This document shows, piece after piece, positions 46,071-56,829 of a stretch of DNA of 64,000 nt (positions within the stretch are counted from its first letter, which is position 1; every line of letters starts with the position of its first letter). A program made the position numbers and the translations under genes. The notes beneath the pieces are model-generated. The model was not told where the DNA came from, made no database searches, and saw nothing but the letters and a program-made list of their open reading frames with translations. The stretch is from Bacilli bacterium (GTDB lineage Bacteria; Bacillota_I; Bacilli_A; RFN20; CAG-631): assembly GCA_900754115.1 (NCBI GenBank), contig CAAEBM010000056.1, positions 2,936 through 66,935 of the forward strand. The letters run 5' to 3'.

Positions 46071-46136
46071 TATTAATCATGTCGGATAATGAATTATCCA
46101 AAAGTGACACTTATACTATACATAGAGGTGAATGGT

Positions 46137-46433
46137 TTGAAAAATATTATCGCCGAAAGAATTAAGTGTCTGAGAGAACAAAATCAACTGACTCAAGCTC
46201 AACTGGCAAGAAAATTACAGGTTTCACGGAATTGTGTAAATGCATGGGAGATGGGAATTTCCCTTCCAAGTACAAAAATGATGTTAGAACTATCGACCTG
46301 TTTACACACAAGTTTAGATTATCTCATGGGAAAAGATGATAAACAGAAAATTGATATTAGTATTTGTAATGAAACGGAAAAACAAGTTTTGTATCAATTA
46401 TTAGAAATATTTCAAAATAAAAAAGTAAAGTAA
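46137..46433 (+). CDS. XRE-family HTH transcriptional regulator
   Basis: IKCLREQNQLTQAQLARKLQVSRNCVNAWEMG is a canonical HTH_3. A TTG start at 46137 follows AGAGGTG. The track ORF starts at ATG 46089, so the start is uncertain. Confidence 0.75.
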   Translation: MKNIIAERIKCLREQNQLTQAQLARKLQVSRNCVNAWEMGISLPSTKMMLELSTCLHTSLDYLMGKDDKQKIDISICNETEKQVLYQLLEIFQNKKVK

Positions 46434-46481
46434 AATATAAGTAACATAGTAAAATATAAAATTCATCTATAATATAACGTA

Positions 46482-46508
46482 AAAAGTTTCAATAAAGAAA
46501 CTTTTTTT
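46482..46508 (+). terminator. Rho-independent terminator
   Basis: AAAAGTTTC-AATAAA-GAAACTTTT followed by TTT. Confidence 0.7.
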
Positions 46509-46582
46509 AATTAAACTTTCTATTATTTTCAGTAAACAGTATGCAAAAAAACATATCCAAGATAGTTAAGCATTGGATATTT

Positions 46583-46597
46583 AAAGTGGACCACTTT
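46583..46597. promoter_or_regulatory. perfect palindrome AAAGTGG-A-CCACTTT (candidate operator)
   Basis: 7-1-7 palindrome about 60 nt upstream of an extended -10 (TGATATAAT, about 46656-46664) that serves the AlbA_2/ATPase gene. It is relatively GC-rich within an AT-rich spacer. Confidence 0.3.
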
Positions 46598-46677
46598 ATT
46601 TTTGTAAAATTAAATGGTTTTTATACTATTAAGATTTAAAAATAATGGTCATAATGATATAATTTAATTGAAAATAG

Positions 46678-48045
46678 GTGATGAAATTGAAATATGAAGA
46701 AAGTAACATTATTGAATTCAAAGAAGTTTTAACTGATGACTTAAATTTTGAAAAAGAAGTAGTTGCTTTTTTAAATTATTCTGAAGGTGGAATCATCTAT
46801 ATTGGTATTGATAAAAATAAAAAAGTAGTAGGTGTTGATAACCCTGATACCATTCAACTAAAAATAAAAGATAGAATAAAAAACAATATAGCACCTTCAA
46901 CGATTGGACTATATGACGTTGTGTTAGAAGAAAAAGAAGGAAAACATATCATCAAAATAATGATTTCTACAGGGAATAAAAAGCCTTATTATATTAGAAA
47001 ATATGGAAGAAGTCCTGAAGGCTGTTTTTTAAGGATTGGAAGTGCTAAAAATAAAATGAGTGAAGAGATGATTGAAGATTTATTTATTTCTCACACTCAA
47101 GTTTCTTTAAAGGATATTCCATCACCAAAGCAAGATTTAACTTTTAGACAATTAAGAATTTTATATGATCAAAATCAAAAAGATTTAAGCGACACTAGTT
47201 TTTTAGCTAATCTAGGTTTATTAACAGAAGATAAAAAACTGAATTATGTTGCTTATTTAGTAGCAGATTCTAATTCAGTTCCTATCCCTGTAGCAAGATA
47301 TGCGGGGAATGATAGGATAGATTTACTTGAAGCAAAAGAATGTGGGTTTAAATCTTTATTAACTGCAACAATAGAAATTCTAAGTTTAATAGAAGCCTAT
47401 AATAAGCGTTATATGCATAAGACCAATTATGGTCATGAAACTGCTTATATGTATGAGTTTGATGCGATAAAAGAGGCATTTGTAAACGCTGTCGTTCATA
47501 ATGATTATACGATGAGTTCTACACCATGTGTAAACTTTTATAATGATAGAATGGAGATTATTTCAGCAGGTGGACTTCCTCAAGGGTTAAATAAAGAAGC
47601 TTTCTTTAAAGGCATTATTTCAAGAAGAAATCCTGAATTGGTTAAAATATTTCAAGATGTCAAACTAACTGAAAATTTGGGTTCGGGAATGAGAAAGATA
47701 TTAAGATATTATGATAAAAGTTGTTTTGAGTTTGTAGGTAAATATATTATTTGTACATTTAAATTTAAACCGAATCCTTTTGTTAATGAATTTAATTCTT
47801 CTGTATCAGAAATAAAAAATGTTACAGATGATGTTACAGTAAATGTTACAGATAAAATAACTATTGAGGATAAAATATTAAGAATAATAGAAAGTGATAA
47901 AAATGTAACTCAAGAAAAAATATCTAAAATTCTTGGTATTTCTAGAATGACAGTATATAGAATTATTAAAAAAAGTAATAAGATTAAAAGAGTTGGATCT
48001 GATAAAAATGGTCATTGGGAAATAATAGAAAATAAAAAAGATTAA
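46678..48045 (+). CDS. AlbA_2 (Schlafen-like) DNA-binding domain, HATPase_c_4-like and C-terminal wHTH protein
   Basis: About 455 aa. N-terminal ESNIIEFKEVL...VAFLNYSEGGIIYIGID (AlbA_2 pattern), central FVNAVVHNDY...GSGMRKI (ATPase-like) and C-terminal ILRIIESDKNVTQEKISKILGISRMTVYRIIKK. Start is ambiguous (GTG 46678, ATG 46681 or TTG 46687). Confidence 0.75.
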   Translation: MMKLKYEESNIIEFKEVLTDDLNFEKEVVAFLNYSEGGIIYIGIDKNKKVVGVDNPDTIQLKIKDRIKNNIAPSTIGLYDVVLEEKEGKHIIKIMISTGNKKPYYIRKYGRSPEGCFLRIGSAKNKMSEEMIEDLFISHTQVSLKDIPSPKQDLTFRQLRILYDQNQKDLSDTSFLANLGLLTEDKKLNYVAYLVADSNSVPIPVARYAGNDRIDLLEAKECGFKSLLTATIEILSLIEAYNKRYMHKTNYGHETAYMYEFDAIKEAFVNAVVHNDYTMSSTPCVNFYNDRMEIISAGGLPQGLNKEAFFKGIISRRNPELVKIFQDVKLTENLGSGMRKILRYYDKSCFEFVGKYIICTFKFKPNPFVNEFNSSVSEIKNVTDDVTVNVTDKITIEDKILRIIESDKNVTQEKISKILGISRMTVYRIIKKSNKIKRVGSDKNGHWEIIENKKD

Positions 48046-48640: not shown

Positions 48641-49660
48641 ATGTCAAAATCAAAAAAGAAAAGTTTTTTAAGTGCAGGTTCAAGGTTCGCTGGTTTAATT
48701 AAAGCAATTATTATATTTGCTATTATTGCTGTTGTAGGAGCAATCATTTTTGCAATAGTTGGGAAAGATGCTACATTTATTTTTGGCTTTGCATTCATGA
48801 CTGGTATTGTTAACGTTATTTTTTATTTTTTATTTAACTGGATAGCGGCTAGAGGTGGAAAACTTGGAAAAATTGCTTTTTTTATTGCTCTTGCGATAGA
48901 AGCGGTTTTTATTATTTTAGGAATTGCATCAATTGGAAATAAGGCAATTTTTTTCAGTTCAGCCAATACTTTTTTAGGAAGAACAGGATATGTTGGAATG
49001 ATTATTTGTGTTCCACTTTTACTAAATCTTTATGTTCTAGATTATAGTGATTTCACTTCATTTGACTATCTTAATGGATATAATCGGCATTTTTATGGGT
49101 TATATGGTACTGTTGTAAGTGGTGTTGTTGCAATTGTTTTAGCAATTTTATTAAAAGACTTAAATCTATTAAGTATCATTACATTATTAATTGCGATTGG
49201 TGTAAATGTAATTACTGTTCTTACATGGATAAAAATGGGTATTCCATTTTCAAAAATGGAAATAACAACCGGTTCTTCATCTAGTTCATCTTCATCAAGA
49301 TCATCTAGCAGTTATTCATCAAGTTCTAGTACAAATCAAGGTGGATATACAGATGTTTATTCTAGAATGGAGTCACTTTGCTATGATATGGCTGAAAATA
49401 AGAGTTTAAATTTTGGTGATGTTGATTTCCAAGTTAGTTTAGTAAATATTACTTCTAATACTATTAATTTTAGAGTTGATTATCGCACAGAATTAAGAGC
49501 TGAAAAAGAATCAGAATTATATGAATTTAATCGTTTTTTAGAACAAGCAATGAGAAATAAATTAAGTGAAGTATCTAGAAAAGCTAAAAATGAACTTAAG
49601 AATTTAAATGTTTCTACAAATTATTCTGTCAATGTTGAATCAGGAAGAAAACTAAATTAG
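48641..49660 (+). CDS. uncharacterised polytopic membrane protein with a poly-Ser linker and a C-terminal soluble domain
   Basis: 339 aa from ATG 48641 (AGGAGGGG RBS). About 6 TM helices, SSSSSSSSRSSSSYSSSSS linker, then a ~100-aa domain I could not assign to a family. The track ORF start at 48584 would read through the promoter and is rejected. Confidence 0.7.
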   Translation: MSKSKKKSFLSAGSRFAGLIKAIIIFAIIAVVGAIIFAIVGKDATFIFGFAFMTGIVNVIFYFLFNWIAARGGKLGKIAFFIALAIEAVFIILGIASIGNKAIFFSSANTFLGRTGYVGMIICVPLLLNLYVLDYSDFTSFDYLNGYNRHFYGLYGTVVSGVVAIVLAILLKDLNLLSIITLLIAIGVNVITVLTWIKMGIPFSKMEITTGSSSSSSSSRSSSSYSSSSSTNQGGYTDVYSRMESLCYDMAENKSLNFGDVDFQVSLVNITSNTINFRVDYRTELRAEKESELYEFNRFLEQAMRNKLSEVSRKAKNELKNLNVSTNYSVNVESGRKLN

Positions 49661-49737
49661 GCATTTTAAATCATAAAAGGGCTATAAAGTGAAGTGTGCT
49701 CAAAAATTGGAAACTTTAAAAGAATTAACAAACCTAT

Positions 49738-49776
49738 AGGATTGAGATTTGTAATCACAAAACTCAGTCCTTTTTG
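49738..49776 (+). terminator. Rho-independent terminator
   Basis: AGGATTGAG-N16-CTCAGTCCT (one mismatch) followed by a T5 run. Confidence 0.6.
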
Positions 49777-50012
49777 TTTAATTTTAATTCTTTTAAAGTA
49801 TTCTTTTTTTTTGACTATATTTTAAAACTAGGTTTTTATAGTTTTTTTATTGAAATTTAATAAAAATAGTTATAAAAATTTTAGATTCTAAAATAGCTTC
49901 TATAGTAAAATTTAATTTTGAAGAGTTTAAATGAGGTTTCTCTACCAAAATTATTAAAACCCTAATGAAAAAAGAATAAAATGCCTTGTTATTAATTACA
50001 TTCACAAATTGC

Positions 50013-50042
50013 TTGACAAAAGTCGGGGGGGGGAATTATAGT
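50013..50042 (+). promoter_or_regulatory. sigma-A-like promoter with a G9 homopolymer in the -35/-10 spacer
   Basis: TTGACA (50013-50018), 18-nt spacer AAAGTC+GGGGGGGGG+AAT (G9 = 50025-50033), TATAGT (50037-50042). GAGGGG RBS and ATG 50077 follow. Confidence 0.6.
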
Positions 50043-50076
50043 GATATTGAAATTATTTACAATGAGGGGATAATGT

Positions 50077-51252
50077 ATGGAAGAAAGTAAAAAAGAAATT
50101 TTAGCAAAATTGTATTGTATAAAAGCCGGTTTGAGTGCAATTTCTTTAGAAAAAGATAAATTGAAAAAAGAAGAAGACCAATGTATTCAAATCCATAAAG
50201 AAATTGATGAAAATCAAAATAAAAAGAATCAGACGATTCAACAATTAAAGATGGTATATCAAGACATAAAAAGTAACGAAAGAAACATTGCTGATTTAAA
50301 TTTTCAAAAGAATAAATCAGCAAAAGTTAATATTGGCCTTGTAATAGGTGTTGGGTTCTGTTCTGGAATATTTTTTGGTCCAATTATCTGGATTGTGATA
50401 GTATTTATTCATGATTTGCTACAATCCATGAAAAATGGTAATAACCAATTTAGTAGTAATTTAATGGGTAAAATTTGGATTCCGATGATTATTGTGGCAA
50501 TTTTAACTTCTATTATTTATTATTTGGTGGATAAGCACAAAAAAAATACAGATAAAAATAAGCAAATTCAAAATTATCAATCTCGCATTACGCCTTTGAA
50601 AAAAAGTCAAACAAAGATGCAAAACGATCTTTCTAATTTTGATGAGACAAATAATAGATTAAATCAATCCCATACACTTGCATTAAAAAAATATGATCAA
50701 GTTAAAAATACCACCATTGATGCAAGTAAAAATTTATATGAAGCTTTGATGTTTGAGTTTTCTTCAGTTTTAGATTCAAGAGACTGGGAAAATATCGACC
50801 TTATTATATTTTATTATGAAACAGGGAGAGCAGATACGCTGAAAGAGGCTTTACAACAAGTAGATAAACAAAGACGTCACGAAGAGTTAATAGATGCAAT
50901 TGAAGAAGCTTCAAATAAAATTTCAAATACAATTCAAATGAGTATGAAAGAATTACAATCTACGATGATAACTTGTTATCAAGGATTATCCTTACAACTA
51001 CAAAAACAACATAATCAATTAGTTCAGCAAATATCACAAGTTCAAACGAATTTAAATTCAATAGGAGAAAATATAGGAAAAGTTAATGAATCAATCCAAC
51101 AATTAAATCAAAAAACTACTGAATATATTACATCAATTGCATCAAAAGATTATTTGCAACAAGCATTACTTGAAAAAATAAGTGTCAATAGTTTATCTTT
51201 AGTAGAAGATGTTAATTATCTTTTATTTTATAAAAAACCAGCAGTTCTTTAA
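50077..51252 (+). CDS. uncharacterised coiled-coil membrane protein
   Basis: 391 aa. N-terminal ~85-aa heptad-like K/E/Q-rich segment, two TM helices (IGLVIGVGFCSGIFFGPIIWIVIVFI; IWIPMIIVAILTSIIYYLV) and a long Q/N-rich helical C-terminus. GAGGGG RBS. Confidence 0.7.
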   Translation: MEESKKEILAKLYCIKAGLSAISLEKDKLKKEEDQCIQIHKEIDENQNKKNQTIQQLKMVYQDIKSNERNIADLNFQKNKSAKVNIGLVIGVGFCSGIFFGPIIWIVIVFIHDLLQSMKNGNNQFSSNLMGKIWIPMIIVAILTSIIYYLVDKHKKNTDKNKQIQNYQSRITPLKKSQTKMQNDLSNFDETNNRLNQSHTLALKKYDQVKNTTIDASKNLYEALMFEFSSVLDSRDWENIDLIIFYYETGRADTLKEALQQVDKQRRHEELIDAIEEASNKISNTIQMSMKELQSTMITCYQGLSLQLQKQHNQLVQQISQVQTNLNSIGENIGKVNESIQQLNQKTTEYITSIASKDYLQQALLEKISVNSLSLVEDVNYLLFYKKPAVL

Positions 51253-51253
51253 A

Positions 51254-51293
51254 AAAAAGCAGAAATTGAATTGAATTCAAAATCTGCTTTTTA
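51254..51293. terminator. bidirectional terminator
   Basis: AAAGCAGA...TCTGCTTT outer stem enclosing the palindrome TTGAATTCAA, flanked by A8 and T5 runs, between convergent genes. Confidence 0.65.
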
Positions 51294-55073: not shown

Positions 55074-55092
55074 ATTTAAAGGAGTGAAAAAA

Positions 55093-56829
55093 ATGGTAAA
55101 TATTAAAGAAGATGAACGTTTAAACATACTCAATCATAGTTGTGCTCATTTGCTTGCTCAAGCCGTTAAACATTTATATCCACAAGCAAAATTTTGGGTA
55201 GGTCCAGTGATTGAAGATGGATTTTATTATGATATAGATTTGCAAGATCAAGTCATTAAAGAAGAAGATTTAGCGACCATTGAAAAAGAAATGAAAAAAA
55301 TTGCTAAAGATGGAAAACGAATTGTAAAAGAAATACTTAGCAAAGAACAAGCATTAGCCCTTTTTCATGATGATCCTTATAAAATTGATTTAATTGAACA
55401 TTTTGCTGCTGATGAACAAATTACAGCCTATCGTCAAGGTGATTTTATTGATTTGTGCCGTGGTCCTCATGTAGAAAGTGTGAAATTATTAAAACATTTT
55501 AAATTATTAAAAGTGAGTGGTGCTTACTATAAAGGTGATAGCAATAATAAAATGTTACAACGCATTTATGGCATTTGCTTTGAAAATGAACAAGATTTAC
55601 AAGATTACTTGAATTTTTTAGAAGAAGCCAAAAAAAGAGACCATCGAAAATTAGGGAAAGAATTAGATTTGTTTATGCTCAGTGAATATGGACCAGGATT
55701 TCCTTTTTGGTTGCCCGATGGTATGATTTTACGCAAACAATTGGAAAACTTCTGGATAGAAGAGCATTTAAAAGAAGGATATCAATTGATTCAAACTCCT
55801 ATTATGTTAAATAAAAAACTCTGGGAAATATCAGGACATTGGGACAATTATCGTGAAAATATGTATACCTCTGAAATCGATAAATATGAATTTGCTATTA
55901 AACCAATGAATTGTCCAGGTAGTTTACTTGTTTATAAAAATGCCATTCATTCTTATAAAGATTTCCCATTAAAACTCGGAGAATTAGGTTTGGTTCATCG
56001 TCACGAAGCAAGTGGAGCTTTAAATGGTTTATTTCGTGTTCGCACCTTTACACAAGATGATGCTCATTTATTTATGAGTGAAAAAATGATTCAAAAAGAA
56101 GTTAAAAAATTGATTGAATTTTATGACCGCATTTATTCTGTATTTGGACTTTCTTATAACATTGAATTATCCACTCGTCCTTTAAATAAGTATATTGGTA
56201 AAATTTCAACTTGGAATCGAGCTGAAAAGGCTTTAGCTAAAGCTTGCGAAGCGGCTAATAAACCCTATAAAGTGAATCCTGGAGATGGTGCTTTTTATGG
56301 ACCAAAATTAGATTTTAAATTAAAAGATTCTTTAGGACGAATTTGGCAATGCGGAACGATTCAATTAGATATGAATTTACCAGAACGTTTTGATATTACC
56401 TATGTGGAAAAAGATGGTTCTAAAAAAAGACCAATTATGTTACATCGTGCACTTTTAGGTTCAATTGAACGGTTTATTGGCATTATTATAGAACATTATG
56501 CGGGGGCTTTCCCACTATGGCTTGCTCCAAAACAAGTGGTCGTTTTACCTGTAAACAATGAGTATCATCGCGATTATGCCAATAAAGTCGTGCAATTTTT
56601 GAAAAAACATGGCATTCGTGCTCATGTTGATGACCGTGATGAAAAACTTGGATATCGCATTCGCGAAGCCAATTTAAAAAAGATTACCTATCAAGTTGTT
56701 GTTGGTGATGAAGAAAAAAATAATAAAACTTTAAAAGTTCGCCATTATGGAAGTCAACAACAAACCGTTTTCACTACAAAAGAATTTTTGAAAAAATTGC
56801 AAGTTGAAATTGCATCTAAGGCTCAATAA
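55093..56829 (+). CDS. thrS: threonine--tRNA ligase lacking the N-terminal TGS domain
   Basis: 578 aa from ATG 55093 (AAGGAG 8 nt upstream). It begins directly in the editing/SAD domain (NHSCAHLLAQAVKHLYP...GPVIEDGFYYD). Class II motifs are present (FRVRTFTQDDAH; GAFYGPKLDF), as is an anticodon-binding domain. Confidence 0.93.
   Translation: MVNIKEDERLNILNHSCAHLLAQAVKHLYPQAKFWVGPVIEDGFYYDIDLQDQVIKEEDLATIEKEMKKIAKDGKRIVKEILSKEQALALFHDDPYKIDLIEHFAADEQITAYRQGDFIDLCRGPHVESVKLLKHFKLLKVSGAYYKGDSNNKMLQRIYGICFENEQDLQDYLNFLEEAKKRDHRKLGKELDLFMLSEYGPGFPFWLPDGMILRKQLENFWIEEHLKEGYQLIQTPIMLNKKLWEISGHWDNYRENMYTSEIDKYEFAIKPMNCPGSLLVYKNAIHSYKDFPLKLGELGLVHRHEASGALNGLFRVRTFTQDDAHLFMSEKMIQKEVKKLIEFYDRIYSVFGLSYNIELSTRPLNKYIGKISTWNRAEKALAKACEAANKPYKVNPGDGAFYGPKLDFKLKDSLGRIWQCGTIQLDMNLPERFDITYVEKDGSKKRPIMLHRALLGSIERFIGIIIEHYAGAFPLWLAPKQVVVLPVNNEYHRDYANKVVQFLKKHGIRAHVDDRDEKLGYRIREANLKKITYQVVVGDEEKNNKTLKVRHYGSQQQTVFTTKEFLKKLQVEIASKAQ

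Follow-up and report, generated by a model that had tools for sequence, protein, structure and literature searches.

The porA gene of Neisseria meningitidis has a poly-G tract in the spacer of its core promoter, and its expression is high, intermediate or absent depending on the length of this tract. In Mycoplasma hyorhinis, poly-A tracts between the −35 and −10 hexamers switch the vlp genes, several independently varying genes for membrane proteins. For Neisseria, changes in the length of simple sequence repeats (SSR) are established to alter promoter spacing (PMC5084427), and in tp0126 of Treponema pallidum a poly-G tract is located between −35 and −10, with transcription being optimal at a spacing of 17 nt (PMC7864442). 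The mechanism considered in the following is already established by T. pallidum tp0126 and Neisseria opc; what is described here is a further case, from an uncultured organism related to Firmicutes CAG:631 / Ca. Caccosoma. The more interesting leads are that the promoter design recurs in orthologues that are only distantly related, and that promoters of this class are so widespread.

Two promoters with G tracts in their spacers

The window, i.e., the whole 64-kb stretch of DNA that was analysed (29.5% GC), is chromosomal, as it carries Mfd, FtsH, HtpG, and ThrRS. It contains two promoters with a G homopolymer in the spacer, termed P1 and P2, all elements of which lie on the + strand. For P2, the first-pass annotation had proposed the arrangement TTGACA, G9, TATAGT, GAGGGG and ATG 50077, which direct reading located in full: the −35 hexamer TTGACA at 50013..50018 is identical to the consensus, the −10 hexamer TATAGT at 50037..50042 is a 5/6 match, and the 18-nt spacer between them (50019-50036) is made up of AAAGTC, nine G's (50025..50033) and AAT. 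Both hexamers were also recovered by a promoter scan of the 48–52 kb interval, in which P2 was the best sigma-70-type promoter match (11/12). A weaker alternative −10 element, AATTAT (50034-39), adjoins the tract and has a 15-nt spacer at G9. Transcription is predicted from the sequence to start at purines 7–9 nt past the −10 hexamer (50049..50051). The RBS GAGGGG (50064..50069; sequence reading) lies 7 nt before the ATG of a coding sequence of 391 aa, listed among the open reading frames at 50077..51252.

Terminators are located on either side of the 391-aa gene, which, having a promoter to itself, therefore forms a single-gene unit. Upstream of P2, an intrinsic terminator (49738..49780) consists of a stem at 49738-49771 and a subsequent U run; downstream, a hairpin at 51254..51292, shared with the convergent gene of a Na+/H+ exchanger, ends the unit. 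The upstream element, postulated earlier at 49738-49776 as separating the two genes, was borne out by folding (−17.8 kcal/mol, z = −5.3). Both terminators were missed by a consensus terminator scanner because their stems are AT-rich, and were confirmed by folding. The inter-gene hairpin is also flanked by a 27-nt imperfect inverted repeat with 85% complementarity (49702-49810), which would lengthen the stem considerably.

P1 (48594..48619) precedes the upstream gene and comprises TTGACT (48594-99), a 14-nt spacer with G8 (48606-13), and TATAAT (48614-19). It is followed by the RBS AGGAGGGG (48626-33; sequence reading) and by a coding sequence of 339 aa (48641..49660) for a multi-pass membrane protein with a Ser-rich linker. 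The product lacks any family match, and because a search among 5.8 billion proteins revealed no homologue beyond its own 90% cluster, it is classified as an ORFan. Its Ser-rich linker is partly encoded by an imperfect 24-nt tandem repeat (49277-49324), a possible second length-variable site. The region directly upstream (46089-48045) contains an XRE-type HTH gene and a gene coding for a 455-aa protein with SLFN/AlbA_2, HATPase_c_4 and HTH domains, which shows weak PADLOC matches to pAgo-associated modules; contig L002 carries a divergent allele of the latter gene, with 97% identity and many indels.

The two promoters had been described as having the same layout. This holds for the distance from TTGAC (48594-98 in P1) to the first G, which is 7 nt in both cases as claimed, but not for the placement of the −10 hexamer or the length of the spacer: in P1, the −10 hexamer adjoins the tract and the spacer has 14 nt at G8, whereas in P2 three bases lie between tract and −10 and the spacer has 18 nt at G9. 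The view that P1 and P2 represent a repeated design rather than a recent duplication agrees with the comparison of the two loci, which have only about 15 nt surrounding the tract in common and whose products are unrelated to each other in sequence. Both tracts sit in promoter spacers, on the coding strand, and they are the only G/C runs of at least 6 nt in the window, compared to 0.00 expected from its composition; the pattern TTGAC-N7-G8 occurs twice, with 0.00 occurrences expected from 100 shuffles of the window. The spacer lengths of promoter-like matches in the window peak only modestly at 16–17 nt, a noisy signal in AT-rich DNA.

Two other types of switch were considered and rejected. Intragenic translational frameshifting does not fit P2, where the tract lies 44 nt upstream of ATG 50077 and the Met encoded by this codon is invariant in an alignment of 26 homologues. 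Nor does it fit P1, where an upstream ATG (48584) reads in frame through the tract at G8 and lacks an RBS, whereas ATG 48641 has AGGAGGGG. An invertible promoter (inverton) was rejected because only imperfect, AT-rich inverted repeats were found, none of which brackets P2; no site-specific recombinase was noted among the neighbouring genes examined, and a search for known RNA elements gave no Rfam match in the window. In practice, the P1 gene is annotated by gene callers as four different “proteins” (358, 351, 339 or 287 aa), according to the pipeline and, in part, to the length of the tract: the 358-aa call requires G8, and the 351-aa call requires G7, with a GTG start inside the G7 tract. 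This variability is an annotation artefact, which can also be used as a proxy of the tract state.

Tract lengths in independent assemblies

Contigs of the same species were retrieved from independent gut-metagenome assemblies by exact-protein look-up. Eleven of them (L001, L003-L009, L167, L168, L170) form a near-identical set, with 99.97–100% identity to the window over about 50 kb aligned. Only 2 substitution sites occur in this alignment, and its sole indels are the gain of one G in the P2 tract (L007, L009), the loss of one G from the P2 tract (L168), and the loss of one G from the P1 tract (L167). The heterogeneity in poly-G length that had been anticipated is present across the assemblies, with flanks otherwise identical over kilobases. 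For P2, G9 is found in the window, L001-L006, L167 and L170 (10 assemblies), G8 in L168, and G10 in L007 and L009; for P1, G8 is found in the window, L001, L005, L006 and L168, G7 in the 597-kb contig L167, and G9 in L002 (the same contig as L169). The P2 allele with one G less, which had been envisaged as shortening the spacer to 17 nt, thus exists in L168. Single contigs carry the P1/P2 pairs 7/9, 8/8, 8/9 and 9/9, indicating that the tracts change independently, as had been proposed as well. Judged from consensus assemblies rather than from reads, no other sites in the locus appear to be nearly as mutable as the G tracts. Contigs L008 and L172 start inside or at a tract, and L178 breaks at a tract, too; as a hint of length heterogeneity within populations, these breaks are only suggestive.

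The length differences are those between consensus assemblies of different samples, and it could be argued that they arise from sequencing or assembly at G homopolymers, the tract itself being a fixed promoter element. Illumina quality falls in and after long G runs, some of the variant contigs are short or of low coverage (L007, 3.1 kb; L009, 2.5 kb), and the low-coverage contigs L171 and L172 contain obvious errors near the P1 tract. However, variants are also located on long contigs (P1 G7 on L167, 597 kb; P2 G8 on L168, 44.7 kb; P1 G9 on L002, 62.8 kb), and P1 G7 was independently recovered via a separate gene call, P0135, on 2 contigs. Five A/T runs of 8–9 nt in the same region are invariant across the contigs. 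Moreover, where the matches listed from the metagenome scan described below include homologous G-tract promoters of other organisms, whose flanks have diverged, the number of G's is 7–12, a range too wide for consensus error. We consider an artefact highly improbable.

P2 is probably a sigma-A promoter that acts as a switch for the 391-aa gene, its strength varying as slipped-strand events lengthen or shorten the G tract. Slipped-strand mispairing during replication would add single G's to the P2 tract or remove them from it. G8 would result in the optimal spacer of 17 nt, G9, the commonest state in gut samples, in a sub-optimal one of 18 nt, and G10 in a spacer of 19 nt with which the promoter should be weak or off. 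The single-gene unit extending from the putative start site at about 50050 to the terminator at 51254-92 would thereby be expressed in a graded or ON/OFF manner that is both heritable and reversible. Since this unit is insulated by the upstream terminator, and the upstream gene has a G-tract promoter of its own, the two genes would switch independently. That tract length alters transcription we infer from general sigma-70 promoter rules and from the precedent of T. pallidum tp0126 (PMC7864442); the rate of change and its reversibility are presumptive as well.

At their natural allele lengths, the spacers have 13–15 nt in P1, which is below the optimum, and 17–19 nt in P2, which is at or above it, so a longer tract should raise the activity of P1 and lower that of P2. 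Under the usual spacing rules, P1 would have little or no activity in any of the populations sampled; the optimum would require G10-G11, a length absent from the sampled contigs. With spacers of 13–15 nt at all observed lengths, a rule of “17 nt = ON” would leave P1 nearly always off. It also counts against the preferred explanation that the commonest P2 spacer is 18 nt rather than 17 nt.

That the P2 tract is a neutral hotspot, hypermutable and devoid of regulatory effect due to similar promoter activity at 17–19 nt or to a different main source of mRNA, seems unlikely. Selection is indicated by the confinement of the G runs of the window to the spacers of two promoters. Tracts are also placed in this way in distant orthologues and in many promoters that are unrelated (see below), and spacer length strongly determines sigma-70 activity, as shown experimentally for the analogous G tract of T. 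pallidum (PMC7864442). Consistent with neutrality, on the other hand, are the predominance of G9, the alternative −10 element adjoining the tract, which could buffer length changes, and a number of weak, AT-rich promoter-like sites found upstream of P2 by the promoter scan. Like the artefact discussed above and the fixed-length element considered below, a neutral hotspot is less likely than a slippage switch.

The 391-aa protein family and the wider promoter class

The product of the P2-driven gene is predicted to be a membrane-anchored coiled-coil protein. Its AF2 model (pLDDT 80) is all-helical, with an N-terminal helix (residues 3–80), a hydrophobic hairpin (about 86–155), and a C-terminal helical bundle. 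Based on the positive-inside rule, both large domains are predicted to lie in the cytoplasm and just one loop of about 24 aa to be exposed; classic variable surface antigens do not usually have such a topology. Comparison with Pfam, NCBIfam, PADLOC and PHROGs yielded only sub-threshold matches of coiled-coil or transmembrane type and no curated family, a PDB profile search gave nothing meaningful, and a Foldseek search with the AF2 model against PDB and BFVD returned no significant match. Components of ClyA-family alpha-pore-forming toxins (SmhB/AhlB/MakE) were rejected as candidates, with Foldseek E values of at least 0.48 and TM scores of 0.26–0.42, and so was identity with MakE, given an NCBIfam score of 18 bits versus a cutoff of 360; the weak, repeated likeness to the ClyA family is only a hint. 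Phage interaction or envelope remodelling as the reason for switching the protein is a guess.

The family that includes the 391-aa protein has at least 276 members, all of them uncharacterised, and is marked by the invariant C-terminal motif RDW..DLIIFYYETGRADTLKEALQQVD. A scan of species-representative genomes, which did not return the window's own species, revealed orthologues with 33–36% identity in Christensenella-like MAGs of higher GC content (45–50%; L013-L015, L031). Their promoters read GCTTGACA-AAAACGC-G9-TAGAAT and are located about 45 nt before the ATG, while the orthologue in L017 has the promoter TTGACA-AAAATA-G8-TG-TATATT. Of further metagenome contigs with the Christensenella-like orthologue (within L173-L191), 14 have a G9 tract and 2 a G10 tract, and three of the contigs end at or just past the tract. 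Seven G runs of at least 8 nt were found in 230 kb of related loci, and five of them lie in the promoter of this gene family. Ordinary promoters also occur in the family: L018 and L020, from a related lineage, have a conventional spacer of 17 nt in the corresponding position, the tract is missing in the homologue of the closest relative, Ca. Caccosoma faecigallinarum (L010), and several other orthologues likewise have ordinary promoters. The ThrRS encoded in the window (55084-56829) is 92% identical to that of Firmicutes CAG:631 / Ca. Caccosoma faecigallinarum, compared to 58% identity between the 391-aa protein and its non-syntenic homologue in L010. The 391-aa protein thus evolves fast, and its gene may have been relocated.

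A metagenome scan with the pattern GCTTGACAAAA-N3-4-G7+ resulted in at least 120 matches (L047-L166) from many organisms and habitats. In 62 of the 117 matches listed, a −10-like hexamer (TAGAAT, TAAAAT, TATAAT) directly follows the G run, compared to a per-position background of 2.2%. Among these listed matches, spacers of 16 nt and tracts of G9 (51/117) are the most frequent, a regularity which is in part a product of the search pattern and of the need for functional spacing. Promoters of the type TTGACA-N6-7-poly-G-(−10) stem from gut, termite, sediment, and digester metagenomes, with tract lengths of 7–19 among the matches listed, and the callable downstream open reading frames of the listed matches often code for transmembrane proteins or for proteins that begin with a signal peptide or lipoprotein signal. 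When the listed matches were clustered strictly, without gaps, 10 same-locus groups resulted, 2 of which are polymorphic, looser visual groupings being weaker evidence; examples of groups differing only in the number of G's are L080/L091/L096 (9/8/9) and L119/L131 (8/9).

The scan also revealed a multi-copy cassette, aatttcGCTTGACAAAAATGC-G8-10-TAGAAT, which runs into a near-perfect palindrome of which the −10 hexamer is part (e.g., TAGAATAGGCTAGCAAAAA/TTTTTGCTAGCCTATTCTA). It was found in L049, L062, L069, L093, L132, L146, L155, L158 and others (samples ERZ1090861, ERZ1643247 and ERZ1643251), at many loci per sample, with no obvious open reading frame directly 3' of it and no Rfam match.

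The recurrence of similar tract lengths raises the question of whether a run of about nine G's is an element of fixed length, recognised or structural, which is sensed by RNA polymerase or a G-tract-binding regulator and mediates conventional, non-stochastic control. Natural alleles differ by ±1, as slippage predicts, and no candidate factor is adjacent in both lineages, the genes neighbouring the 391-aa gene being different in the window lineage and the Christensenella-like lineage. We know of no factor that senses such a G-tract spacer element. The G9 mode, observed over unrelated loci among the matches listed and in both orthologue lineages, and the invariable position of the tract in the 3' part of the spacer would be in line with a fixed element, but result largely from the search pattern and from the need for a spacer of 15–17 nt. 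We therefore regard control by a fixed-length element as quite improbable. The strong dominance of G9 in both lineages could also reflect stabilising selection on one length.

Returning to the slippage switch, it is conceivable, albeit somewhat doubtful, that promoters consisting of TTGACA, 6–7 nt, G8-10 and a −10 hexamer form a widespread and as yet unreported “phasome”, a phase-variation system of uncultured anaerobes from the gut and elsewhere, including CAG:631/Caccosoma-like Bacilli and Christensenella-like Clostridia, which preferentially controls envelope or secreted proteins. The 391-aa family would then be a target of stochastic switching conserved across class-level divergence, for example as a factor at the phage/host interface, and the ON/OFF state of such promoters would be readable directly from metagenomes.

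Implications and comparison with known systems

If P2 is a slippage switch, an uncultured, fairly clonal human-gut bacterium would diversify its envelope stochastically via at least two independent slippage switches, one of which would govern a protein family having the same switch in distant gut lineages. Homopolymer promoter phase variation, documented mainly in pathogens (Neisseria, Treponema, Mycoplasma, Campylobacter), would extend to commensal Bacillota. An uncharacterised membrane protein family would stand out as one on which phage, immunity or niche exert fluctuating selection, with the tract length providing a marker that is readable from metagenomes. A literature search turned up no account of switching by poly-G promoters in Christensenellales or CAG:631-like gut Bacillota.

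The vlp system of M. hyorhinis resembles the locus in its spacer homopolymer, in its host, a low-GC member of the Bacillota/Mollicutes radiation, and in the control of membrane-protein genes; it differs in that the tracts are poly-A and the genes form a paralogous lipoprotein family, whereas the tracts described here are poly-G and precede two mutually unrelated genes. Like tp0126 of T. pallidum, which codes for an OmpW homologue, P2 has a G homopolymer of about 8–10 between the −35 and −10 hexamers of a sigma-70-type promoter (PMC7864442). The tract of tp0126 varies in length among and within strains, the encoded proteins are envelope proteins, and tprE/G/J and tprL are further examples (Giacani 2007, 2015; PMC7864442). 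T. pallidum, however, is a spirochaete pathogen with a GC content of 53% in which G runs are common, unlike the window with its 29.5% GC and otherwise absent G runs, which derives from an uncultured member of the human-gut Bacillota.

The poly-C tract of N. meningitidis opc is likewise a spacer homopolymer within a core promoter, with high, intermediate or no expression depending on length (PMC5084427). With opc and porA, several loci of N. meningitidis switch independently; in contrast to the P2 locus, they encode Gram-negative outer-membrane proteins of known function, and switching rates have been measured. The sortase-pilus switch of Bifidobacterium breve shares with P2 the slippage of a G tract in a human-gut commensal, and its ON state is selected in vivo; unlike P2, this actinobacterial switch has its tract inside a gene, where it works through frameshifting (PMC9187656). 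Compared with these systems at the level of sequence, the P2 locus would qualify in every respect as a homopolymer promoter-spacing contingency locus.
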